From a virus, in the IMG/VR virus record IMGVR_UViG_3300038463_000401: 64,000 bases of DNA; one strand, 5' to 3'. The notes beneath the pieces were generated by a model. That model did not search any database. It saw nothing but the letters and a program-made list of their open reading frames with translations, and had not been told where the DNA came from. Every line of letters begins with the position of its first letter. Positions within the stretch are counted from its first letter, which is position 1. A program made the translations under genes and the position numbers. Below are positions 49,633 to 63,101 of this stretch, in pieces.

Positions 49633-51621
49633 GTGGCCGATAGCCCCTCACAAGTTCAAAACCTGGACCCGAACCTAGAGTTGGGGTCTGGTAGTAATTC
49701 TGCGTCGCGCTACCCCAACCCGTTCTTCGATCTCGCTCAACAGTACATGCCTCCGACGATCAAGGAGCTGTTCCGTTGGTGCACGTTCTATTACTACAAC
49801 TCGCCGATCATTGGCGCGGCGATCCGCAAGGTCAGCCGCTACCCGATTACCGACCTGATCCTAGACGACGAACTCGAGTCGGTGCGCACGCTGTGGTCGA
49901 CGATCTTCAACGACTACTTGAAGATCAAGTCCAGGCTGATGGAGATCAACCTCGACTACTACGCTTACGGCAACTCGTTCGTCTCGATGCACTTGCCGTT
50001 CACGCGGTTCTTGATCTGCCGCGGCTGCAAGAAGAGCATGCCCATCCGTCAGTGGGAGTGGAGCTTCCGCTCAGCTGTGTTCGGCTTCCAAGGTGCATGC
50101 CCCGGCTGCGGCAAGACGTGCGACCTCGACGTTAAAGACGTGCCCTACAAGGATCTCCGAGGCATCCGCCTAATCAGGTGGAACCCGGAGAACATGCAGC
50201 TCAAGTTCAACGAATACACGGGCCGCTACATTTACATGTACATGGTCCCGTCGAAGCTTAAGAACGCGATCATGCGCGGGGACAAGGACATCCTTGAGGA
50301 CATCCCGCTTGTCGTGCTCGAGGCGGTGAAGAAGCGCCGCATGATCCGCTTCAATCAGGACAACCTCTTCCATCTGAAGGCGCCGACACTTGCCGAGCAG
50401 GATCAGGGCTGGGGCAAGCCACTCATCCTGAACGTCCTGAAGGACATGTACTATTTCTACACCTTGCGCCGCGCGCAGGAAGCAATCGCCAACGAGCACA
50501 TTGTGCCGTTCGACGTCATCCACCCGTTGCCAAACGGCCAGCAGGATCCGTACGTCCACACGGACCTCGGCAACTGGAAGATGAAGATCGAGGGCTTGAT
50601 CAAACGCCACCGGCGCGACCCGAACTTCAAGGCTGTCATCCCAATCCCTGTCGGGTTTGGCCGCTTAGGCGGGGATGGCAAAGCTTTGCTACTCAGCCCT
50701 GAGATGAACTTCATCACCCAGACCGTCGTTGGCGGGATGGGGCTGCCGCAGGAGTTCCTCTTCGGGGGCCTGAACTACACGGGCTCGTCAATCTCGCTTC
50801 GCACGCTTGAAAACGACTTCATTCAGAACCGCGCGCAGATGCTGGACCTCTGCATTTGGATAAAGGCCAAGATCCGCAACTGGATGGCGCTTCCCAACGT
50901 CAAGTCGATTCGGTTCGCGGACTTCCGCATGGCGGACGACGTTCAACGCAACCAGCAGCTAATTGGCCTCAACGCCCAGGGCAAGGTCTCTGACCAGACC
51001 ATGCTGACTGAACTCGGTTATGACTACGACCAAGAAGTCAAGAAGAGAATTGAGGAAATCTTCGTTGCCAACTACCTGAACGACCTGGTCGCGAAGGGTG
51101 GCGCGAAGAGCCAAGGTGAGGCGTCGCTCATCGCCTACAACTACCAGTCCAAAGTGCAAGAGCTCGCGGCGCGCGGCGCGGCCGCGGCGGATGCGCGGCT
51201 TGGCTTGCCGCCGGGGACGACCGAAGCTACCCAATCCGGCACGCCAGTTCCTGGCCAGGGAGACCCCGCACTAGAACAGGGCGCAGCTCCGTCTGGCGGG
51301 GCCGCTGGCGCATCGGAACACCCGACTGGTGGCCAGGCTGACCAAGCGACCCAGCAAGCGTCCATGGACCAGCAGATCCAATCCAAGGTCCAGGGCTGGG
51401 CAACCAAGCTCACCCAGATGCAGCCGGCGCAGGCTCAACTTACCATATCCCAGCTTAAGTCCAAGATGCCTGAGATCGGCCTGCAGGTTGAGAAGGCCTA
51501 TCGGATGCTCCTCGCGGGCGCGCAGCCTGGGGCTGGCGCTAAGGGGCCTGCGGCTGGTATGGAAGTCAACATGGATCCGATGCCTACCCAAGGCGCTCCT
51601 AGGCGTGCTGGGACGGTCTGA
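49633..51621 (+). CDS. Portal protein with zinc-ribbon insertion
   Basis: Portal-type blocks LDYYAYGNSF, IRWNPENM, LFHLKAP...GWGKPLI, GMGLPQEFLFGG.NY; long Gln/Ala/Pro tail. Confidence 0.7.
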   Translation: MADSPSQVQNLDPNLELGSGSNSASRYPNPFFDLAQQYMPPTIKELFRWCTFYYYNSPIIGAAIRKVSRYPITDLILDDELESVRTLWSTIFNDYLKIKSRLMEINLDYYAYGNSFVSMHLPFTRFLICRGCKKSMPIRQWEWSFRSAVFGFQGACPGCGKTCDLDVKDVPYKDLRGIRLIRWNPENMQLKFNEYTGRYIYMYMVPSKLKNAIMRGDKDILEDIPLVVLEAVKKRRMIRFNQDNLFHLKAPTLAEQDQGWGKPLILNVLKDMYYFYTLRRAQEAIANEHIVPFDVIHPLPNGQQDPYVHTDLGNWKMKIEGLIKRHRRDPNFKAVIPIPVGFGRLGGDGKALLLSPEMNFITQTVVGGMGLPQEFLFGGLNYTGSSISLRTLENDFIQNRAQMLDLCIWIKAKIRNWMALPNVKSIRFADFRMADDVQRNQQLIGLNAQGKVSDQTMLTELGYDYDQEVKKRIEEIFVANYLNDLVAKGGAKSQGEASLIAYNYQSKVQELAARGAAAADARLGLPPGTTEATQSGTPVPGQGDPALEQGAAPSGGAAGASEHPTGGQADQATQQASMDQQIQSKVQGWATKLTQMQPAQAQLTISQLKSKMPEIGLQVEKAYRMLLAGAQPGAGAKGPAAGMEVNMDPMPTQGAPRRAGTV

Positions 51622-52876: not shown

Positions 52877-53289
52877 TAGCGGCCAAAGTTAGGCGCCAAG
52901 CCAGGCCAGGAATCCCCTGACGGCGGCGGCGCGTAGTTGCCTGATCTGTAATCATTTGGCCCTGGGCTAAACCCACGGGAAAAAGCAGTCGCTACCGGCG
53001 CCGGTGCAACGGGTAGCGGCTGTGCGCCACTTATCCCAAATCTCTCCTTGACCGCATCGACCTCTGGCCCATGCCCCTTCCCAAACTTCCTCCCCATCTC
53101 GATCATTGCGTGGCCACCAGCTACAATAGCCATCTCGCCCGCTACCCTGAAGGCTGTTTTTAGTGTGAAAACCAACAGATCCCTCCAGAAGGAGGCGGTG
53201 ACTAGCTGGCCAAACAAATCGTTGACCAGCACACCTACGGACTTGACAAGTCCCTTGTTTGCCTCAATGGCAGGTTGTGGTTTCTGCAT
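52876..53289 (-). CDS. Hypothetical protein
   Basis: GGAGG upstream; coupled to ORF 52535. Confidence 0.6.
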   Translation of the reverse strand: MQKPQPAIEANKGLVKSVGVLVNDLFGQLVTASFWRDLLVFTLKTAFRVAGEMAIVAGGHAMIEMGRKFGKGHGPEVDAVKERFGISGAQPLPVAPAPVATAFSRGFSPGPNDYRSGNYAPPPSGDSWPGLAPNFGR

Positions 53290-53398
53290 CTACCTTGGCC
53301 TCCTCTGTGCTAGACTTACGTGGGGCGGACAGGATAATTTCAATGGCGATTTCAAGTAGCTCGATCAACCAGTTCCCTCCTTGAAATTAACTTCTTCT

Positions 53399-53413
53399 CA
53401 AGGGGCTTATACC
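53399..53413 (+). promoter_or_regulatory. Candidate phage-specific promoter CAAG-GGG-CTTATACC
   Basis: Third copy of the motif, at a divergent junction 8 nt before the RNAP ATG. Confidence 0.6.
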
Positions 53414-53421
53414 AAAGGCCT

Positions 53422-56400
53422 ATGCGAAATTTTGACCCCACACAGCAGTTCGCTGCGATCAAGAAGTCGGCCACTGATGCGGTCAAAGAGATCTTCCCCG
53501 TTGAGGGCAAGCTCCGCACGATCCGCTTGGTAGACGTGACCGTCAACGACACGCTGGATCCGACCGACTATAAGTCGCAAGTCCAGTCCAAGGAGCGCGA
53601 AGGTACTTGGGGCGCCCCCGTCATGGCCGAGCTTGAGCTCGTGGATAAAACCACAAACAAAGTGATCGACAAGGCTAAGGTCAAACTCTTCACTTTGCCA
53701 AAGCTGACCAACCGTTTCAGCTACATCGTCAACGGCAACGAATACCAAGTGCACAACCAGCTTCGCTTGAAGTCTGGTGTGTACACCCTGCGTAAGCAGA
53801 ACGGAGAACTCAAGACGCAAGTAAACCTTGCGAAGGGGAAGAACTTTGACCTTGCCTTTAACGAACGTACAGGATTATTCACGATCCAAAAAGTGGGCGG
53901 CGGCCAAGCGAATATCCCTCTCTACCCTGTTCTTACTCATCTCGGTATTAGTCCTACTGGTATTGCCACTGCTTGGGGCTCTCAACTACAGCAAGCTAAC
54001 TCTAAGGCCGACCCCAAAGCCGTCGCCCGCACCGAGTCAGCATTCGGGATCAAACCGGGCGAGCTGAAAGACTACCTAGCGAAGACCGTGCTAAACCCTG
54101 AGACGACGAAGACCGTGCTAGGCCAGAGCTACGAGCGCGTCGACGGCCCGCTGCTGCTCGCCGCGGCGAAAGACCTCCTGCAAGTCCACCTCGGCCAGAA
54201 GGAGCCGACCGACCGCGACTCGCTGGCGTTCAAAGAGCTGCACTCGGTCGAGGACTTCATCCACGAGCGCATCCAAAAGAATAAACAGCCCCTGGCCTTC
54301 AAGCTTCGCCGCAACGTCGACAACCTCAAGCGTGACAAATTGTCACAAATTGTGAATCCCGGCGCGTTCCAGTCGACCGTCGAAGGCTTCTTCACCCAAG
54401 ACGATAAGAGCGCCACGCCTGAGCAGACCAACCCAGTCGAGATGCTCGCCGGCCAATACATGACGACGATCATGGGCTCGGGCGGCATTGGTTCCGACCA
54501 TGCCGTGACGGCAGGCATGCGCGAGATTCATCCGTCACATTACGGGTTTATGGACCCGATACACACGCCGGAGTGCTACGACCCCGAAACAGAAGTGCTA
54601 ACCCAAGAAGGCTGGAAGAAGTGGCCTGACGTAACCAAGAAGGATCTCTTCGCCTGCCGTATAGACGGCGAGCTGCAATTCCATAAAGCTGAGGCCCTAC
54701 ACCGCAGCCACTACGAAGGGACCATGTACGGGGCGCAGACCGGCAAGCTTGACTACTTGGTTACGCCTAATCACCGTATGCTCGTGCGCCCGCTGGACTC
54801 GAAATTAAACGCTTGGCGTATTGCCTCTGCCGAAGAGATTCACCGCAAACCCAGAACGTTCTGCACCACACATGAACCATTCAAGGGCAATAGCGACTTC
54901 ACTCGCTATGCCTTTCAGTACGTGCCCGGCAGCAACTCCATGGTCCATACAGAGAGTGTGGATATCGGGGACTGGTGTGAGTTCATGGGGTGGTTCCTGG
55001 CAGAAGGCAGCACCCACATCTCTTCGAAGGTGTCTGACTACCGCGTGCACATCTTCCAAAGCAAAGAAGCCAACCCAGAGAGCTGCGCCCGGATTGAGAG
55101 ACTCTTAAACCGGTTACCCTGGACTTGGAGCTTCAGCAGCGGGAACGCATACACCATTTGTGGCAAGGAACTCGTTTGCCAACTAAACGGTCAGGGCTAC
55201 TGCGACACTAAGTTCATACCTACTGAGCTGCTATCTGCACCCGTCGCCGCAAGAACCAGGATGCTAGAGGCCCTCTTGCGGGGGGATGGGCGCATAGACT
55301 CTGTCAGGGCAACCGGGGTTCGCTATAAGCAACAGGTGTTTACCACCACAAGCAAACGACTGGCCGAGGGCTTTGAGCAATTAGCCATAGGCCTCGGTTA
55401 CTCAGTCCGCACTGGGCAATACAAAGACAAACGGGAAGAGCGATACCTCGACACTTACGAAGTCAGGTTACTACAGCGTCTTACCCGCTCGGCGAGAAAG
55501 CACAACAATCGTCGGAAGAGCTGCGACTACTTTACTACCCAGTATTGTGGCGAGGTTCACTGCGCCACAGTGCCAGGCGGCCTCTTGTTCGTACGCAGAA
55601 ACGGCAGCGTACCCATCTGGCTAGGCAACAGCTCGCGTGTGGGTGTAAACATGCACCTACCCATGGGCATACAGAAAGACGGTAAAGACCTCAAGATGAC
55701 CGTGCTGCGCCCCGACGGCCGGACGAGCACGACGATCAACCCGACTGAAGCCTACGAAGCGCGGGTCGCGTTCCCCGGCCAAATGCCCGGCGACTCGCCG
55801 ACGGTAAAGGTCCAGTACCGCGGCAAGTCTATCGTTGTTCCACGTGGAACAGTCGACTACTACACACCCGCGCCGTCGGCGCTCTTCTCCTGGTCGACCA
55901 ACCTGATCCCGTTCTTGCCATCGACCCAGGGCAACCGGTCGATGATGGCCTCGAAGATGATCGAGCAGGCTATCGCGCTCAAGCACAGGGAAGCACCGCT
56001 GATCCAAGTGGAGTCGAAACCCGGGTCGTCGTTTGAGGAGAACATCGGCAACAGCCTGGCGATCCTGGCACCGGCCGACGGCGTGATCAAAAAGGTCACG
56101 AAGGACGCGTTAGTGCTACGCACAAGCGAAGGCGACAAGATCTTCAATCTCTATAACAACTTCACGCTCAACCGTAAGTCCTTCATGAACCACGAGCCGC
56201 TCGTGAAGGTCGGCGACCGCGTCAAGAAGGGGCAAGTCCTCGCGGATAGCAACTTCACCAAGGGCGGCACGCTCGCGCTTGGCACCAACATGCGTGTGGC
56301 CTACCTCCCCTATAAAGGTCTGAACTTCGAAGACGGGATCGTCATCACTGAGTCCGCCGCGGACAAGCTGACAAGCGAACACATCCACAAGAAGAGCAAG

Positions 56401-59400
56401 GATCTCAGCGACGCCAACATCCTTGGTCTCTCCGCCTTCCGTAGCTTCTACCCAAACACGCTATCCGCACAGAACATGGCCAAGCTTGACGAGCAGGGCA
56501 TCATCAAGAAGGGACAGACGGTCCGCCACGGCGAAGCCCTTGCGGCTATCCTCCAGCGCCGCGGTGCGTCGCCCATGATCAGCGTCGTCAACCGCGCGCT
56601 ATCCGAACGCCCCAAAGACGCGTCCATGTATTGGACGCTCGAGGACGACGGCCAGGTTATTGACGTGCAGAAGACACCGACCGGCGTCACCGTGTGCGTG
56701 AAGACCGAAGAGCGCGCCCGCATCGGGGACAAGCTCTCCGGCCGCTACGGCAACAAGGGTATCATCACCAAGATCCTGGCCGACAAGGAAGCGCCGCGCG
56801 ACGCGTCAGGAAAGCCCGTCGAGATCTTGCTCAATCCTCACGGCGTTATCACCCGTATCAACGTCAGCCAGATCTATGAAAGCGCTACCAGCAAGGCCGC
56901 GCTCAAGGCTGGCAAGCCTATCAGGGTCAGCAACTTTGACGGCGGGAACAACCTTGACCTTACGAAGGGGATTATCGACAAGGCGGGCACTCCCGACAAA
57001 GAGGAGCTTTTTGACCCAACGACCGGGAAGAGTCTCGGCAAAGTCCATGTCGGTAACCCCTATATCCTAAAATTATTCAAGCAAGGTACGGTCAACTTCT
57101 CTGTCCGTCAAGGCGGCCCCGGCAATCCTTACGATGCCACAAACCGTCAGCCACTTAAAGCCGGCGGTGAAGAGGGCGCGAAGGCTATGGACGTGCTCAC
57201 TACGTATGCCATGCTGGCCCACGGCGCACGCGCTAATCTAAGAGAAATGGGGACGATCAAGAGCGACCAGAACGACGAGTTCTGGAAGGCTTTGAAGTCC
57301 GGCCAGCCACTGCCGCCGCCCAAGTCCCCGTTTGTCTACGACAAGTTCATGGGCTACCTGCGCGCCGCGGGCATTGACGTTAAGAAAGACGGGAGCAAGC
57401 TCACGCTGGCGCCCCTGACGGATAAGCAGGTTCTTAAGCAAAGCTCCGGCGAGATTAAGAACATCCAGTTCTACCGCGGCAAAGGCGAAGGCGAGAAAGA
57501 GCCAATGAAGGGCGGCTTCTTTGACAAGACGCTCACCGGCGGCTACAAGGGCGAGAAGTGGAACCACATCGAGCTTCATGAGCCGGTGGTCAACCCTGTC
57601 TTCGAAGTCGCAGTCAGCAAGCTCACCGGCCTCGGCAAAAAGTACGACGACGTCGTCGCCGGCAAACTGCATTTGGACCCCAAAACAGGGTTGTTTAATA
57701 CCGAGGGCAAGGGCCTGACCGGCGGGCGCGCCGTTGAACATTTGTTAAAGCAAATCGACGTCGACGCCGAGATGAAGTCGCAGCTGCGCATCGCTAGCAA
57801 GGCCACCGGCGCCGCGCTCGACGACGCCAATAAGCGCATGCGCTATTTAACTGCGTTAAAAGTTAACGGCCTGAGCCCTGCGGAAGCCTACATCCGCAAG
57901 TCCGTGCCGATCCTGCCGCCGGCCTACCGGCCAATCTATCCTTTACCGGATGGGTCGATGGGCAGCTCGGACATCAACTATCTCTACCAGCACGCCGGTG
58001 TGCTCAACACCATGGCGAAGCTGCCAGTCATGGACCTCCTCGCCGAAGAGGAGAAGGCTGGAATCCGCAGCGACGTCAACCAGTCCGTCAAAGCGATTGC
58101 GGGTCTGACTGACCTGGCGATCAAGGGCCGCACGCGGGAAGGCTTCATCTCCGAGATCAAAGGCGGCACTGGCGGCCAGCCCAAAGAGGGCTTCTTCATC
58201 AGCAAGATGATCTCGAAGAAACAGGACTTCGTCGGCCGCGGCACGATCATCCCCGAGCCCGATCTCGGCATCGACGAGATGGCCATGCCCGAAGAGATGG
58301 CATGGAAGCTTTTCGAGCCATTCGTTATTCGCGAATTGAAGAACCACGGGAAGAACCCGCTGCAAGCCCAGGATGAGATTAAGAATAAAACCCCCTTGGC
58401 AAAGCGCGCGCTCGACATCGTCATGGCCCAGCGCCATGTCCTGCTCAACAGAGCGCCGTCGCTGCACAAGTTCTCAATCATGGCCTTCCGCCCCAAGATC
58501 ACTGCCGGCCGCGCGCTGAAGATTCCACCGCTAGTTTGCAAAGGATTTAATGCTGACTTCGACGGCGATGATCAACAGAATTTGATAGCGACATTCGTAA
58601 CAAATGAAGGTATAAGCAATCTGTTAAAGATTGTAAAGCCATCTTTTGTTACGGAGAGGATCATGACAGCCCGATTTAAGGTTCAACTGCCGACCATGAA
58701 TCATAAAGGTGAGATTTTATTGTTCAACTTAGAAGACTTTCCCCATGGAGAGCTTCTAGGCAGCAAAGAAGGGGAAAAGGGTAGGATAGATTTCTACAGG
58801 GCACTGCCAGGATTCCATGTTGTGGCCCACGATGCTGTCACTGGCAGGTTGGATTGGAAGCCGGTGTTTGGTTGGTCGAAGCACTACCAGCGCGAGGTAG
58901 AAGTTGTTACGCTTGCCAGCGGGCAGCAAATAATCACGGATGATGATCCGCGGGCTATTTACGGAATCGCGCGCGGTAGCCTAGAATTTAGCCGCTTCCG
59001 CCCTAAAGATGCCACAGGTGTCTTTGTTCCAAGAGCCTCCAGAATCACTTTAGACGGGGCTCCTATTTACAATGCAGTGCCTTTTGGTGATAAAGAATTG
59101 CAACCGCTCAATGAGGACTTTGGTTACTTCGTTGGCTGTTTGGTCTCCAACGGGTGGGTTGAGCATCATCTAGAAAAACCTACAGGGAGGGTTTTCCTCG
59201 CAGCTAAGACAGAGGAAGTCTCCAGAAAATACCTGCGCATAGTAAAAGAATTATTCGGCGATCGCCACATTTGTCGGCAAGAGCGCGGGGAGCCTGGGCC
59301 AGATGATAATTTCTACGGCGAGGCTGTTAAGCACTCGTTCATGTACCATGATCTGGCAGAGGCAATTGCCGCATGGATTGGCTGCGGGGCTCGCAATAAG

Positions 59401-62070
59401 CATCTGCCCGCATTCTTCTTATCGGCGCCTAAAGAATTTCAGCTTGGAATGCTTGCGGGGTTAATGGATAGCGATGGCTCAATCAGTGTAAGCCATGGCA
59501 AGAAAACCCCCCAGCTCGGAGTCCAATACTCTAGCAGCAGCCTACGTCTTCTCCAAGAGATTCAGCTGCTAACTAGAGCCTTAGGTATCAAATCTAGGAT
59601 TACACCGTTTAAAACCCCGGCTGGAGAGCCTTTCTGGTATTTAAGCTTTTCCACGCCAGATGCTAAAACTTGGAACGGGCGCGGCATGGTTCATCCTGCG
59701 AAGGTAGGAAACCTGCACAATACCTTTGTCGATGCGGAATCCAATGTGGTTGCCCGTTACGATATTGTGCCGATCTCTTCAAGTCTTGCTAGCCTTATGC
59801 GCAAAATATTGGGAGCACCGAGAGATGCCAGCCATGAGCATAAGTGCATCTACGCCATTCTTTCCAAGTCTCTGACATCGGGGAGTCTAAGCAGGCAGAC
59901 GGCTAAAAGGCTCTTCAACTATTTAGACCGCGCAAAGGTTTGCGACCACCCTGACTTAAAGGTGTGGGAGGGGATCGTCGAAAATGAGGATATCGCGTGG
60001 GATCAAGTAGAGGGGTTTGAACGGTCCCACATCAGGGAAGACGGCTACGACCTGACAGTCCCGGGCTTTGAAACCTTTATGAGTGTTGAAGGAATCATCC
60101 TCTCCAACACTATGACCGTGCATGTACCCATTAGCGAGGACGCTAACCAAGAGGCGGCTAAGCTTCTGCCATCAAGGAACCTTTTTCAACCTGGGACGGG
60201 GCGCCTCATGGTAGCCCCGTCCCAAGAGGCCCAGGTGGGCCTCTTTTACCTATCAAAGGCGCCGGCCGGCAAAGCGATCCTGGCCAAGATCATCGGCCCG
60301 AAATTTGAGTTACCTCAAATATTCGATAAGAAGGCTACCGGCGCTTTGCTGCAAAGCATGGCCAAAGGCATGACCGCGCCGGAGTTCTCCACCGCGGTCG
60401 CCGCGCTTAAGCACGCCGGCGAGACCCACGCCTACGACTCGGGGTTCACCCTCGGTATCGACGACCTGATCGGCATCCGCAAGGACCGCGACGCCATCGT
60501 GGCGGCGGCGACCACTCAGGCGGGCAAAGCCAAAGACGAGGCCGGTGTTGCCGCTGTGAACAAGTCCGCAACTGCCCTTATTGACAAGGCAATAGACAAA
60601 CGACTGAAGGGCACGAATAACCCCCTCTATGACATGGTAGAATCAGGAGCGCGCGGCGATCGGTCGCAGCTGCGAAGCATCATAGCGACCCCGCTCTTCA
60701 TGACCGACGCCCACGGCGGTACCGTCCGGACACCGATCAAGCGCTCCTATAGCGAAGGGCTCGACGTAGGGGATTACTGGACCAGCATGTACGGCGCCCG
60801 CACGGGGGCAATGGCCCGCTCGATCCAGTCAAGCCTGCCAGGCGCGTTCAACAAAGACGTTATGGCTACGACGATCGACAACGTAATCACGGCCAACGAC
60901 TGCGGGACAAAGGATGGCGTCACCCTTCCGATCACGGATACAGCTGATATCCTGGATCGCTATACAGCCGGTGGCGTTCTTGGCCAGCCGTACAACGCCT
61001 TGGTCGATCAGCGACTTCTGGCATCGCTTAGGGCGAGCGGGGCCAAAACCATCAAAGTCAGATCTCCGCTCACTTGCCACCGGCCGAAAGGAATCTGCGC
61101 ACACTGCCACGGACTCGACGCCCACAGCAAGCTCCCAGAAATCGGAGACAACGTAGGCGCGGTGGCCGGGCAGACGATCAGCGAACCACTCATTCAAATC
61201 GTCATGAATGCTAGGCACACTGGCGGCGTGGCCGGCGCAAAGGGCTCTTCTCAGGGTGGTTACCAGAGGATAGACCAACTACTAAAATTGCCAAAGATAG
61301 TAGTTGGTGCGGCAGCCTTGGCCCCCAAGGCCGGCACGGTCAAGAAGATCGAGAAGGGCTTGGCTGGAGGCTTCAACGTTACGGTTGGCGAGACTGTCAA
61401 CCACGTTGAGAGCGGGCTGGCCTTGAAGATCAAGGTCGGCGATCACGTCGCGGCAGGTGACGCGCTCTCGGATGGGGTTTTAAAACCCCAAGACCTAGTG
61501 CGCTTCAAGGGCATGCAGCCGGCGCAGCAGTACATCGTCGACGAGCTCCACAAGGCCTACCACGCTGAAGGCGTGCCGATCGCCAAGCGGATCTTTGAGA
61601 CCGTGGTGCGGTCGCTAGGGAACACCACCACTGTTTTGAATAATTCAAAAGATAGCGGGCACCTTCCCGGAGACACCGCGCCTTACACGGTCGTCCAGGA
61701 TTTCAACCGCAACCTGATCACAGGTGTACCGCTGGACGAGGCCGATGGGATGACGCTCGCCGAGGGCGTAGGGGGACTTCGGACAGGGCACGTCCTGACG
61801 CCAGATGATCTTAAATTGCTACGCGTTAAGGGCGTCGTCCAAGTCAAGATCAGCCGAGACCCGATCGTGCACGCGCCGTTCCTCAAGGGCATTACGACGC
61901 TGCCGCTTCTAAAGAAGGACTGGATGAGCGCGCTCGGCTACCGTTACCTTGCGAAGTCCCTCACTGAAGGCGCGTCGCAAGGCTGGAAGACCGACGTGGC
62001 CGCAGAGCACCCGATACCCGCGCTCGCACATGCAGCATCGTTTGGTCAGGGCAAGGGAGGGAAGTACTGA
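53422..62070 (+). CDS. rpoBC: Fused multisubunit RNA polymerase beta-beta' (RpoB-RpoC-like) with two intein-like insertions
   Basis: Beta motifs YIVNGNEYQV, REIHPSHYG..PIHTPE, LIPFLP...NRSMM, GLNFED, GDKLSGRYGNKG, LLNPHG; beta' motifs PILPP.YRP, LLNRAPSLH, NADFDGD, SGARG, DCGT, CAHC, GQTISEP, MNARHTGG. No stop at the junction (about 57382). Confidence 0.97.
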   Translation: MRNFDPTQQFAAIKKSATDAVKEIFPVEGKLRTIRLVDVTVNDTLDPTDYKSQVQSKEREGTWGAPVMAELELVDKTTNKVIDKAKVKLFTLPKLTNRFSYIVNGNEYQVHNQLRLKSGVYTLRKQNGELKTQVNLAKGKNFDLAFNERTGLFTIQKVGGGQANIPLYPVLTHLGISPTGIATAWGSQLQQANSKADPKAVARTESAFGIKPGELKDYLAKTVLNPETTKTVLGQSYERVDGPLLLAAAKDLLQVHLGQKEPTDRDSLAFKELHSVEDFIHERIQKNKQPLAFKLRRNVDNLKRDKLSQIVNPGAFQSTVEGFFTQDDKSATPEQTNPVEMLAGQYMTTIMGSGGIGSDHAVTAGMREIHPSHYGFMDPIHTPECYDPETEVLTQEGWKKWPDVTKKDLFACRIDGELQFHKAEALHRSHYEGTMYGAQTGKLDYLVTPNHRMLVRPLDSKLNAWRIASAEEIHRKPRTFCTTHEPFKGNSDFTRYAFQYVPGSNSMVHTESVDIGDWCEFMGWFLAEGSTHISSKVSDYRVHIFQSKEANPESCARIERLLNRLPWTWSFSSGNAYTICGKELVCQLNGQGYCDTKFIPTELLSAPVAARTRMLEALLRGDGRIDSVRATGVRYKQQVFTTTSKRLAEGFEQLAIGLGYSVRTGQYKDKREERYLDTYEVRLLQRLTRSARKHNNRRKSCDYFTTQYCGEVHCATVPGGLLFVRRNGSVPIWLGNSSRVGVNMHLPMGIQKDGKDLKMTVLRPDGRTSTTINPTEAYEARVAFPGQMPGDSPTVKVQYRGKSIVVPRGTVDYYTPAPSALFSWSTNLIPFLPSTQGNRSMMASKMIEQAIALKHREAPLIQVESKPGSSFEENIGNSLAILAPADGVIKKVTKDALVLRTSEGDKIFNLYNNFTLNRKSFMNHEPLVKVGDRVKKGQVLADSNFTKGGTLALGTNMRVAYLPYKGLNFEDGIVITESAADKLTSEHIHKKSKDLSDANILGLSAFRSFYPNTLSAQNMAKLDEQGIIKKGQTVRHGEALAAILQRRGASPMISVVNRALSERPKDASMYWTLEDDGQVIDVQKTPTGVTVCVKTEERARIGDKLSGRYGNKGIITKILADKEAPRDASGKPVEILLNPHGVITRINVSQIYESATSKAALKAGKPIRVSNFDGGNNLDLTKGIIDKAGTPDKEELFDPTTGKSLGKVHVGNPYILKLFKQGTVNFSVRQGGPGNPYDATNRQPLKAGGEEGAKAMDVLTTYAMLAHGARANLREMGTIKSDQNDEFWKALKSGQPLPPPKSPFVYDKFMGYLRAAGIDVKKDGSKLTLAPLTDKQVLKQSSGEIKNIQFYRGKGEGEKEPMKGGFFDKTLTGGYKGEKWNHIELHEPVVNPVFEVAVSKLTGLGKKYDDVVAGKLHLDPKTGLFNTEGKGLTGGRAVEHLLKQIDVDAEMKSQLRIASKATGAALDDANKRMRYLTALKVNGLSPAEAYIRKSVPILPPAYRPIYPLPDGSMGSSDINYLYQHAGVLNTMAKLPVMDLLAEEEKAGIRSDVNQSVKAIAGLTDLAIKGRTREGFISEIKGGTGGQPKEGFFISKMISKKQDFVGRGTIIPEPDLGIDEMAMPEEMAWKLFEPFVIRELKNHGKNPLQAQDEIKNKTPLAKRALDIVMAQRHVLLNRAPSLHKFSIMAFRPKITAGRALKIPPLVCKGFNADFDGDDQQNLIATFVTNEGISNLLKIVKPSFVTERIMTARFKVQLPTMNHKGEILLFNLEDFPHGELLGSKEGEKGRIDFYRALPGFHVVAHDAVTGRLDWKPVFGWSKHYQREVEVVTLASGQQIITDDDPRAIYGIARGSLEFSRFRPKDATGVFVPRASRITLDGAPIYNAVPFGDKELQPLNEDFGYFVGCLVSNGWVEHHLEKPTGRVFLAAKTEEVSRKYLRIVKELFGDRHICRQERGEPGPDDNFYGEAVKHSFMYHDLAEAIAAWIGCGARNKHLPAFFLSAPKEFQLGMLAGLMDSDGSISVSHGKKTPQLGVQYSSSSLRLLQEIQLLTRALGIKSRITPFKTPAGEPFWYLSFSTPDAKTWNGRGMVHPAKVGNLHNTFVDAESNVVARYDIVPISSSLASLMRKILGAPRDASHEHKCIYAILSKSLTSGSLSRQTAKRLFNYLDRAKVCDHPDLKVWEGIVENEDIAWDQVEGFERSHIREDGYDLTVPGFETFMSVEGIILSNTMTVHVPISEDANQEAAKLLPSRNLFQPGTGRLMVAPSQEAQVGLFYLSKAPAGKAILAKIIGPKFELPQIFDKKATGALLQSMAKGMTAPEFSTAVAALKHAGETHAYDSGFTLGIDDLIGIRKDRDAIVAAATTQAGKAKDEAGVAAVNKSATALIDKAIDKRLKGTNNPLYDMVESGARGDRSQLRSIIATPLFMTDAHGGTVRTPIKRSYSEGLDVGDYWTSMYGARTGAMARSIQSSLPGAFNKDVMATTIDNVITANDCGTKDGVTLPITDTADILDRYTAGGVLGQPYNALVDQRLLASLRASGAKTIKVRSPLTCHRPKGICAHCHGLDAHSKLPEIGDNVGAVAGQTISEPLIQIVMNARHTGGVAGAKGSSQGGYQRIDQLLKLPKIVVGAAALAPKAGTVKKIEKGLAGGFNVTVGETVNHVESGLALKIKVGDHVAAGDALSDGVLKPQDLVRFKGMQPAQQYIVDELHKAYHAEGVPIAKRIFETVVRSLGNTTTVLNNSKDSGHLPGDTAPYTVVQDFNRNLITGVPLDEADGMTLAEGVGGLRTGHVLTPDDLKLLRVKGVVQVKISRDPIVHAPFLKGITTLPLLKKDWMSALGYRYLAKSLTEGASQGWKTDVAAEHPIPALAHAASFGQGKGGKY
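54574..55629 (+). mobile_element. Intein 1 (352 aa, LAGLIDADG-type endonuclease) in the beta part
   Basis: Starts CYDPETEVLT, block B VTPNH, ends WLGN with Ser+1; removal restores IHTPE-SSRVGV, matching IETPE-GPNIGL of RpoB. Confidence 0.93.
58570..60108 (+). mobile_element. Intein-like insertion 2 (513 aa, LAGLIDADG endonuclease) directly after NADFDGD
   Basis: Removal gives NADFDGD-TMTVHVP (RpoC NADFDGD-QMAVHVP); GYDLTV block F, IILSN/T end, GYFVGCLVSNG and LAGLMDSDG motifs; first residue is Asp. Confidence 0.88.
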
Positions 62071-63101
62071 TGACTGCCTTCTGGGACGGCTTCGAAAAGC
62101 GCGGCTCGCTTCAGAAAGAGGCGATCTTCGGCGCGCTCGGCGCCCACCTTGCTCAGAACGTCCTCATGCAAAAACTCATTCGCAGTAAGCGGTTTGGCGG
62201 CTCTCTCGCAGGAGAGTTTCAGCACGGGCTCGCTGGCAGAAGTCCAGGCAGGATCAGCCAATTCATTAGAGGCATGGCCACTGGCGCAACCGCCCCAGAG
62301 ATAAAAATGATGAAGGATCACGCCAGAGAAATGGGCGGGCATGTCGCTCAGTCTCTTAGAGAGCAGGGCGTCACGCACCTCAAGCCGCAGGATATCTCCC
62401 TCGCCAGAAGTCTGACCCAGGGCCGGTTTAGCCGCCTCCTTGACCCGAAGCACTTCCAGGCAGATAACCCAACCCATCAAGCCATCCTAAATGTGGCAAA
62501 CAAGCATCTTGGCACAGGGATCACACCAGAGCTGCTACGCTCGTCACCAGAGCAACTGAAGCCGCATCTCGGCCGGCTGGAAGAAGCCTGGCGCAGCAAG
62601 AAGTCCCCAGTAACATCTAATCTGTTCTCCCAGCTCACGAAGAATCCAGGCAAGCCTGGGTTCATACCGAGAGCTCAGATGGCGAACGTAGCCCATGAGG
62701 TCGGGAATAAGCCGATAGACCTGCGGCACAAGTCTGGTCTTGCTGGTGGGCTCGTTGGCTCCGCAGCAACTGGGGTTATAGATCCGGCTACCGGTGCGCT
62801 AAACGCAAGCAAGATCATGACGACCAACCCGGCAGGCAGAGCGCTAGTCTCTCAAGCACCCCTGGGGCAAAAGGCCCTAGTAGCCGCGGATAAGCATTTC
62901 TTCACGCAGCCCATACAGAATGCCGCTCAACAGGGCCTCAGCGGGCAGAGGACCAGTCCGATACGGCACGCCGTCAATAGCCTCGGCCTAAATGCGGCCA
63001 CCGCAGAAATGGCACACTCTGCTAACCAGCTCGGCGCTGCGGCGTCGAATGTCGCCCCCAGACCGCTTATGCTCAAACGAGCGCTAGAGGAGGGGTACTG
63101 A
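62070..63101 (+). CDS. Putative head-internal protein starting with FWDGFEKR motif
   Basis: MTAFWDGFEKRGSLQKEA; coupled to the RNAP stop; glycine-zipper segment GLAGGLVGSAATG. Confidence 0.6.
   Translation: MTAFWDGFEKRGSLQKEAIFGALGAHLAQNVLMQKLIRSKRFGGSLAGEFQHGLAGRSPGRISQFIRGMATGATAPEIKMMKDHAREMGGHVAQSLREQGVTHLKPQDISLARSLTQGRFSRLLDPKHFQADNPTHQAILNVANKHLGTGITPELLRSSPEQLKPHLGRLEEAWRSKKSPVTSNLFSQLTKNPGKPGFIPRAQMANVAHEVGNKPIDLRHKSGLAGGLVGSAATGVIDPATGALNASKIMTTNPAGRALVSQAPLGQKALVAADKHFFTQPIQNAAQQGLSGQRTSPIRHAVNSLGLNAATAEMAHSANQLGAAASNVAPRPLMLKRALEEGY

Follow-up and report, generated by a model that had tools for sequence, protein, structure and literature searches.

A putative mobile intein without a residue-1 nucleophile in the Mg-binding loop of a phage single-chain RNA polymerase

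The viral DNA considered here is a stretch of 64,000 nucleotides from IMG/VR record IMGVR_UViG_3300038463_000401, referred to as a whole as the window. Its open reading frame (ORF) list and Pfam matches place a gene for a multisubunit-type RNA polymerase (RNAP) of 2882 amino acids (aa) at 53422-62070, on the plus strand like the insertions and motifs described below. This one ORF holds the beta domains Rpb2_3 and Rpb2_6, followed by the beta' domains Rpb1_1, Rpb1_2, Rpb1_4 and Rpb1_5, and beta and beta' are therefore fused as a single chain. The polymerase is interrupted by two in-frame insertions, of 352 aa (54574-55629) and 513 aa (58570-60108), and measures ~2017 aa without these two inteins. 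The larger insert, which splits the catalytic loop between NADFDGD and TMTVHVP, is the subject of this work.

Translation of window positions 58450-60230 places the junctions at ...KGFNADFDGD/DQQNLIATF...GYDLTVPGFETFMSVEGIILSN/TMTVHVP, where a slash marks each junction. The 513 residues, numbered below from the first insert residue, correspond to residues 1717-2229 of the ORF. The N-extein motif NADFDGD (58549-58569) contains the catalytic Mg-binding Asp triad and ends in Asp(-1) (58567-58569). The insert itself, assigned from translation, Pfam and predicted fold as a HINT splicing domain with a LAGLIDADG endonuclease domain, opens with Asp1 and Gln2 (58570-58575). Alignment then identifies LEDFPH (residues 54-59; 58729-58746), which belongs to a ~22-aa segment specific to the family that we call Q-type below; WSKH (residues 102-105; 58873-58884), whose His105 is matched to the NX motif by alignment with PI-PkoII; and TDDDPR (residues 123-128; 58936-58953), a block B variant with Thr at B:7 and Asp126 at B:10. 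The first LAGLIDADG motif, GYFVGCLVSNGW, covers residues 185-196 (59122-59157), and the second, LAGLMDSDGS, covers residues 295-304 (59452-59481) with its catalytic Asp302 present. Blocks F and G form the C-terminal end, GYDLTVPGFETFMSVEGIILSN (residues 492-513; 60043-60108), in which Asp494 is F:4, Ser512 the penultimate and Asn513 the last residue. Glu501 occupies the place of the class 1 block-F His (ETF versus HNF, read from the sequence). The C-extein TMTVHVP (60109-60129) follows directly with Thr+1 (60109-60111).

The insert had been singled out in an earlier note, written from the sequence alone, as an intein-like element without the residues for canonical splicing. Its description holds throughout: the insertion is 513 aa long, in frame and exactly between NADFDGD and TMTVHVP; the Asp start, the TDDDPR segment, the GYDLTV...SN/T end and the LAGLIDADG pair are all present; and there is neither a Cys or Ser at residue 1, nor a block-B His, nor the block-F Cys of class 3. 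The GC content of the insert is 0.50, compared with 0.58-0.61 for the exteins in the window. Pfam recognises LAGLIDADG_3 in it (E = 8.9e-12), and Intein_splicing matches its C-terminal end weakly, under the cutoff. When a profile that includes the flanks is compared with bacterial beta' chains of the PDB, the match ends at ...NADFDGD and restarts at M-x-VHVP. Thr+1 therefore stands where E. coli has Gln465. Searching the PDB with a single sequence yielded no more than a weak match to PI-PkoII, and in the profile search the RNAP flanks dominated. Rfam recognised neither an intron nor any other RNA family in 53000-62500.

A query with the N-extein only returned many close relatives of ~2000 aa (59-78% identical) that have no insert. 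Across 82 such intein-free relatives the site is contiguous and reads D.DGD/[TAS]M.VH.P, typically NADFDGD/TMTVHVP (...GATGGGGAT/ACCATGACC...), just as the earlier note had predicted for alleles without the element. An N-junction lying cryptically further downstream was considered and rejected: it would add at least 30 residues after NADFDGD, and the intein-free alleles do not have them. At the +1 position these 82 alleles carry Thr in 70 cases, Ala in 11 and Ser in one, while Thr+1 is found in 108 of 108 full-length Q-type alleles (Fisher p = 6e-5, for rows that are not phylogenetically independent). The polymerase thus tolerates Ala at this position while all Q-type alleles have Thr, which means that it is the intein, and not the polymerase, that needs Thr+1.

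The same site also hosts canonical inteins. Those of P0234 (L004:5625-6974) and P0262 (L005:4569-5912) read DFDGD/CFANDY...SKN/T and DFDGD/SILGTH...SKN/T, respectively, and a third group starts with Ser and ends in THN/T. At least three homologous types, which align over their full length, therefore occur at NADFDGD/T: Cys/Ser1 inteins ending in SKN/T, Ser1 inteins ending in THN/T, and the nucleophile-less inteins for which we coin the name Q-type.

The Q-type is a large family. A query with the insert and its flanks gave more than 1000 matches, and in all of the best 120 the insert sits at the identical site. An exhaustive phmmer search of 1.84 billion representatives returned 229 clusters at E < 1e-30, which among the matches listed are RNAP-sized proteins or their fragments. 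Within these listed matches, the Q-type appears to be restricted to NADFDGD/T of phage single-chain RNA polymerases. The same-site insert in the best 120 matches and the 229 clusters go far beyond chance and rule out a lone degenerate allele, a caveat that the earlier note had itself raised; non-nucleophilic starts and TDDDPR are kept across the family. We did not find a published description of an intein at NADFDGD or of the Q-type family in the full texts searched, which leave out many subscription journals. A deep-branching RNAP of Caudovirales was described by Weinheimer and Aylward (2020; PMC7481178), whose paper nowhere uses the word "intein".

Conservation was counted in an alignment of 121 sequences, residues 1 and 2 in the 108 full-length members. 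Leu54, Pro58, His105, Asp126, Arg128, Gly132, Asp494, Phe503, Gly508 and Asn513 are invariant, and Asp124, Ser512 and Thr+1 are kept in 120 of 121. Position 123 is Thr in 107 members and Ser in 12, Ser103 is present in 119, and Thr496 and Thr502 are also strongly conserved. Residue 1, by contrast, is any of 15 residue types (Gln 41, Glu 21, Ala 10, Asp 8, Cys 6 and ten others), with Cys or Ser in only nine of 108, and it is followed by Gln2 in 76. In block B, Asp126 aligns with the His of TDDH in the canonical relatives and with the block-B His of PI-PkoII, and His105 of WSKH aligns with the IRH of PI-PkoII.

The first catalytic position of the endonuclease is Asp in 79 members and Asn in 40. 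The window itself has Asn194 (59149-59151) at this position, as do nearly all of its closest relatives, and judging from the Asn194/Asp302 pair its endonuclease may be a nickase or inactive. In P0046, a natural Q-type of 372 aa, both LAGLIDADG motifs are lost and every HINT motif is retained. Such a pattern is expected if splicing, and not the endonuclease, is indispensable, and suggests that selection on the splicing domain does not depend on the endonuclease.

The predicted structure agrees with this architecture. The insert was modelled in AlphaFold2 together with flanks of 30 aa, and the model (pLDDT 78.6, pTM 0.74) retrieved the homing-endonuclease inteins TliVMA (E = 1.5e-20), PI-PfuI and PI-PkoII in Foldseek, and VIA-align gave Z ~21 against these whole inteins (2cw7 for PI-PkoII). 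Mini-inteins align with the model from the N-junction to Asn513 at an rmsd of 1.8-2.9 Å (PabCDC21-1: Z = 19.4, 1.9 Å over 156 residues), the C-terminus of the model superposes on the terminal Asn of the matched inteins, and the endonuclease part matches I-DmoI and I-Tsp061I with Z = 15-18. The insert is thus predicted to be a HINT domain with an inserted LAGLIDADG domain, and the fold check that the earlier note had proposed comes out in favour of an intein.

Several observations indicate that the element moves between polymerases. In a maximum-likelihood tree of 80 relatives, built on 600 extein columns, all intein types are interleaved with intein-free alleles (19 state changes among the 80 rows), and at least 11 Q-type state changes fall on well-supported branches. 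The clearest pair is P0017 (2519 aa, with a Q-type intein) and P0273 (2007 aa, intein-free), which come from adjacent-accession runs, share their neighbouring genes and differ at 4 of 2007 extein residues. At the DNA level (L001 versus L002), the difference is an indel of exactly 1536 nt, flanked by the Asp codon and ACC (Thr). Upstream of the indel identity is 99.6% (0.4% mismatch); the first 600 nt on the downstream side contain 25 mismatches, and beyond them the rate is ~1 per 200 nt. This cluster of mismatches beside the indel is a co-conversion tract, as expected after homing. A second pair, P0018 and P0239, shows 4 of its 10 differences within 12 residues of the junction. P0018 has the Asn/Asp pair of LAGLIDADG catalytic residues, and still has a near-identical intein-free partner and a co-conversion-like cluster.

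Inteins and exteins also differ in their divergence. Between the window and P0011, the exteins are 85% identical and the inteins 52%. P0009 and P0003, which both carry a Q-type intein, have an extein pN of 0.035-0.040 with pS of 0.69-0.73, and an intein pN of 0.34 with saturated synonymous sites. Inteins and exteins have thus not been inherited together. The extein dN/dS in this comparison is ~0.01-0.02, at synonymous sites near saturation, and the polymerase is evidently under strong purifying selection while it is interrupted by the intein.

Taken together, we conclude that the insert is in all probability an active mobile intein, spread by LAGLIDADG homing. A Q-type insert is translated within the polymerase, and it must be excised and the exteins ligated before the enzyme can work. 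From its mobility and the purifying selection on the exteins, we infer that it very probably splices without a residue-1 nucleophile.

This poses the question how the N-terminal junction is broken. To our knowledge, three protein-splicing mechanisms are recognised, each of which relies on Cys, Ser or Thr at residue 1, on Cys+1, or on a block-F Cys. As there is no residue-1 nucleophile, splicing cannot start with the class 1 acyl shift. Because Thr+1 is the sole conserved nucleophile at the junctions, we tentatively favour direct attack by Thr+1, a class 2-like route that proceeds via an oxyester, although we would not call it probable, and the attacking group is put forward as a hypothesis. 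In this scheme, the Thr+1 hydroxyl, activated by the block-F Asp494 and/or the NX-motif His105, would attack the peptide bond between Asp(-1) and residue 1 directly. Thr123, Asp126 and Arg128 would put the scissile bond under strain and donate a proton to the departing amine. The attack would result in the usual branched ester, Asn513 would then cyclise and free the intein, and an O-to-N shift would restore NADFDGD-TMTVHVP. The LAGLIDADG domain would spread the element through homing.

Two features of the family are in line with this route: the F:4 Asp is invariant in the Q-type, and the Cys1/Ser1 homologues at the same site read TDDH where the Q-type reads TDDD. An F:4 Asp has been proposed to activate the +1 nucleophile, there Cys+1, in the class 2 intein KlbA (PMC2807308), and in Ser1/Thr+1 oxyester inteins the NX motif, a His that is conserved upstream of block B, has been described (Pasch et al., PMC10189870); this His, which the earlier note does not mention, is present in 121 of 121 Q-type sequences.

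A number of points weigh against the Thr+1 route. The three usual helper His residues (B:10, block F and penultimate) are all absent. We know of no precedent for a Thr hydroxyl that directly attacks an unactivated amide, and the class 2 inteins known to us use Cys+1 and retain the block-B His. The Q-type moreover occurs only with Asp at -1, which attack by Asp(-1), the main rival considered below, would explain and the Thr+1 route does not. PMC3196547 reports that Arsp-FB24 Arth_1007 (WDT triplet), an intein which has no N-terminal nucleophile either, turned out to be inactive. The reading as a whole, an active mobile intein spliced by the Thr+1 route, therefore stays somewhat short of an even chance.

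In the main rival, the polymerase itself would supply the first nucleophile. Here, the Asp(-1) carboxylate would attack its own main-chain carbonyl to form a succinic anhydride and release the N-terminus of the intein. The anhydride would replace the usual (thio)ester, and Thr+1 would attack it to give the branched ester, followed by Asn513 cyclisation and the O-to-N shift. We consider this route unlikely, but it accounts for several features at once. The family is found only where -1 is Asp, residue 1 would be a mere leaving group and is unconstrained, and the invariant Asp126 in place of the block-B His could, together with Arg128, act as acid and counter-ion. In class 1 inteins, an Asp in the -1 position favours N-cleavage, and autoprocessing through an Asp anhydride with subsequent ester formation is known outside inteins, at the GDPH motif of MUC2 and the inter-alpha-inhibitor heavy chains. 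No intein is known to us, however, that uses an Asp(-1) anhydride. Attack on the wrong carbonyl of the anhydride would leave an isoAsp link in the active site, and the site does not force this chemistry, since Cys1/Ser1 inteins occupy it with an identical Asp(-1).

The register of the model also bears on this route. As a control, the Cys1 intein of P0234 was modelled with the same flanks as the Q-type intein. Residue 1 of canonical inteins maps to residues 29-30 of the Q-type model, of which 30 is Asp(-1), and to residues 30-31 of the control, of which 31 is Cys1. Of the paired rows, 12 show a shift towards the extein of +1 or +2, eight a shift of 0 and one a shift of -1. This would be suggestive of an Asp(-1) near the place of Cys1, and lies within the end noise of the aligner: the mean shift is below one residue, the Cys1 control puts this noise at ±1 residue, and in the control residue 1 often maps to Asp(-1) too. 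A shift of about one residue towards the extein would also bear on the suggestion of the earlier note that the extein FDGD might supply the strand of block A, and here, too, it lies within this end noise.

If Asp(-1) takes part in this way, the Q-type could represent a fourth mechanistic class, in which no side chain of the intein starts the reaction. Instead, the catalytic Asp(-1) of the polymerase would be an activated acyl donor, either through the anhydride or through a metal held by the Asp-rich block B, and the intein would use, and perhaps gate, the Mg loop. We regard this extension as doubtful, too.

Some polymerases at this site have an altered catalytic triad. The extein motif D-x-N-G-D, in which the second catalytic Asp is Asn, occurs in six of eight inteins with a Cys or Ser start (Ser-start carriers P0236, P0243, P0265, P0267, P0293 and P0297), in 11 of 149 Q-type alleles (P0173, P0174, P0184, P0192, P0195, P0201, P0204, P0209, P0212, P0229 and P0230) and in none of the 82 intein-free alleles; the window itself has DFDGD. 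The exteins of P0265 (DFNGD, with an intein) and P0275 (DFDGD, intein-free) are 98% identical, and their differences, including N>D at -3, cluster at the junction. With DFNGD, a polymerase should have no activity. No sequence is more prone to deamidation than Asn-Gly, and the active site may thus mature after translation. DFNGD precursors would fit the picture of Asp(-1) as a donor if the catalytic triad matures post-translationally from Asn to Asp.

Two assisted or cryptic routes are, even taken jointly, improbable. In the first, similar to class 1 or class 3, the initial branched ester would form on Ser103, Thr123, Thr496, Thr502 or Ser512, all of which are strongly conserved (Ser103 as counted above). 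Ser/Thr103, Thr123 and Thr/Ser496 are, however, common to the canonical Cys1/Ser1 relatives and so not specific to the loss of the nucleophile. A class 3-like course would also need an F:4 Cys, and the prototype of class 3 is inactive when it carries the C320S mutation (PMC2807308). In the second, a metal bound at the acid-rich site (Asp124-126, Asp494, Glu501 and the Asp triad of the extein) or a factor from the phage or its host would assist; the site is indeed unusually acidic, has none of the usual His residues and lies beside the Mg-binding loop.

Cleavage at the C-terminus only, which the earlier note had offered as a way to a functional two-piece RNAP, we consider very improbable. Asn513 would cyclise and leave the intein on the N-terminal piece, unless the N-junction were hydrolysed in an unrelated reaction. 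The invariant Asn513 and the non-nucleophilic residue 1 fit such a course. Asn cyclisation, however, needs no +1 nucleophile, and yet Thr+1 is nearly invariant in a polymerase that tolerates Ala. The intein-free alleles are contiguous at the site, and conservation of the HINT motifs is equal at the N-terminal and C-terminal ends, the mini-version P0046 included. In RNAP the loop lies buried in the active centre, and an appendage of 55 kDa would clash there.

Least probable of all is that the insert is never removed from the protein, be it as a dead allele with a helper phage, as a domesticated domain or through removal at the RNA level: the missing canonical catalytic residues and the co-occurrence of intein-plus and intein-free alleles in adjacent-accession runs, probably of one sample series, would allow for this, but the extein dN/dS of ~0.01-0.02 in intein carriers despite saturated synonymous divergence, the hundreds of lineages with intact ORFs of 2000-3000 aa, the presence/absence polymorphism, which speaks against an indispensable domain, the lack of an Rfam intron match in 53000-62500, and a protein-level conservation in which blocks F and G stop exactly at the junction speak against it. 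Mobility, extein selection, the mini-version and the Rfam result together thus make a dead allele, a permanent domain and RNA-level removal unlikely and imply excision from the protein.

The other insertion of the polymerase provides an internal contrast. Intein 1 (352 aa; 54574-55629, by translation) follows ...DPIHTPE in the beta part and is class 1-like. Its junctions are ...HTPE/CYDPETEV... and ...WLGN/S, and it has Cys1, a TPNH block B and two LAGLIDADG-like motifs; its GC content is below that of the exteins. There are relatives of ~2355-2373 aa and others of ~2005-2010 aa, and these lengths suggest presence/absence of intein 1 or of another beta intein among close relatives.

The polymerase adjoins structural genes, including a portal-like ORF at 49633-51621. 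Among the 19 neighbouring ORFs scanned, matches to PHROG portal, baseplate and tail families were found, and most ORFs gave no match; none of the ORFs scanned gave an alpha or omega homologue. With tblastn, 50,697 phage records yielded no close relative for either the polymerase or the intein, but only terminase and helicase inteins that are unrelated and short matches to beta'. The window is part of a divergent uncultivated tailed phage, and the lineage is known from metagenomes only.

The Q-type is a large, diverse and mobile family in an essential and constrained gene, and has neither the known splicing nucleophiles nor the three helper His residues. It probably uses a new mechanism, namely a new route for breaking the N-terminal junction. 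If so, a cysteine-free intein that is independent of its first residue and ligates Asp/Thr would be a tool for protein engineering. An intein in the Mg-binding loop could furthermore make phage transcription conditional on splicing, and three related intein types that compete for one site offer a natural system in which the evolution of splicing chemistry can be studied.

How does the Q-type relate to the known intein classes? It shares the general marks of inteins: a predicted HINT fold, a terminal Asn followed by Thr+1, and contiguous intein-free alleles. Class 1 inteins start with Cys, Ser or Thr and have a T-x-x-H block B. The window has Asp1 instead, and across the family Thr123 is present (or replaced by Ser, as above), while the B:10 His is replaced by Asp126 in 121 of 121 sequences. 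For most Q-type members, class 1 chemistry is thus excluded by the missing residue-1 nucleophile. Class 3, with MP-Be DnaB as its prototype, shares with the Q-type a non-nucleophilic residue 1, Thr or Ser at +1 and an association with phages. It needs the WCT triplet, however, and the Q-type has Arg128 at B:12, Asp494 at F:4 and Leu511 at G:5, invariant or nearly so, which excludes this class.

Class 2 is formally defined by the lack of both a nucleophile at the N-terminus and a WCT triplet (Tori et al. 2010, PMC2807308), and by this definition the Q-type belongs to it. The earlier note had held that the element fits no class. This is correct in so far as the Cys+1 and the block-B His of class 2 are missing, but it does not hold for the formal definition. 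Like the Q-type, the class 2 KlbA inteins have no N-terminal Cys, Ser or Thr and no WCT triplet, possess an F:4 Asp, a terminal Asn and a HINT fold, and are presumed to undergo direct attack of the +1 residue on the N-junction. In contrast, KlbA has Ala1, Cys+1 and the block-B pair Thr7/His10, whereas the Q-type has a variable residue 1, Thr+1 and an invariant B:10 Asp followed by Pro-Arg. The Q-type further differs in having no penultimate His and a Glu in the place of the class 1 block-F His. KlbA inteins are archaeal, while the Q-type, which has a LAGLIDADG domain, resides in the RNA polymerase of phages.

A second group of relatives are the NX-His oxyester inteins, such as PolB16 OarG, Psp Pol-1 and PI-PkoII, which are cysteine-less members of class 1 (PMC10189870). 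They share with the Q-type a Thr or Ser at +1, an invariant His ~20 residues before block B and the combination of HINT and LAGLIDADG domains. Unlike the Q-type, they have Ser1 and a block-B His, the latter absolute in 58 Ser1 inteins (PMC10189870). The Lys or Arg that always precedes the NX His in oxyester inteins (PMC10189870) is found in ~43% of Q-type members.

The nearest systems are the Cys1/Ser1 inteins at NADFDGD/T itself (P0234, P0262, and also P0236 and others), which are homologous to the Q-type over their full length and inserted at the identical point. Their blocks F and G closely resemble those of the Q-type ([MG]YDL[ST]VP..ETF...LS(K)N/T), and they share the NX His and the TDD start of block B, but they keep the block-B His (TDDH or TEHH) and do not have the ~22-aa LxDFPH segment of the Q-type. 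It would thus seem that the Q-type derives from a Ser/Cys1 oxyester intein at the same site through loss of the residue-1 nucleophile and the B:10 His.

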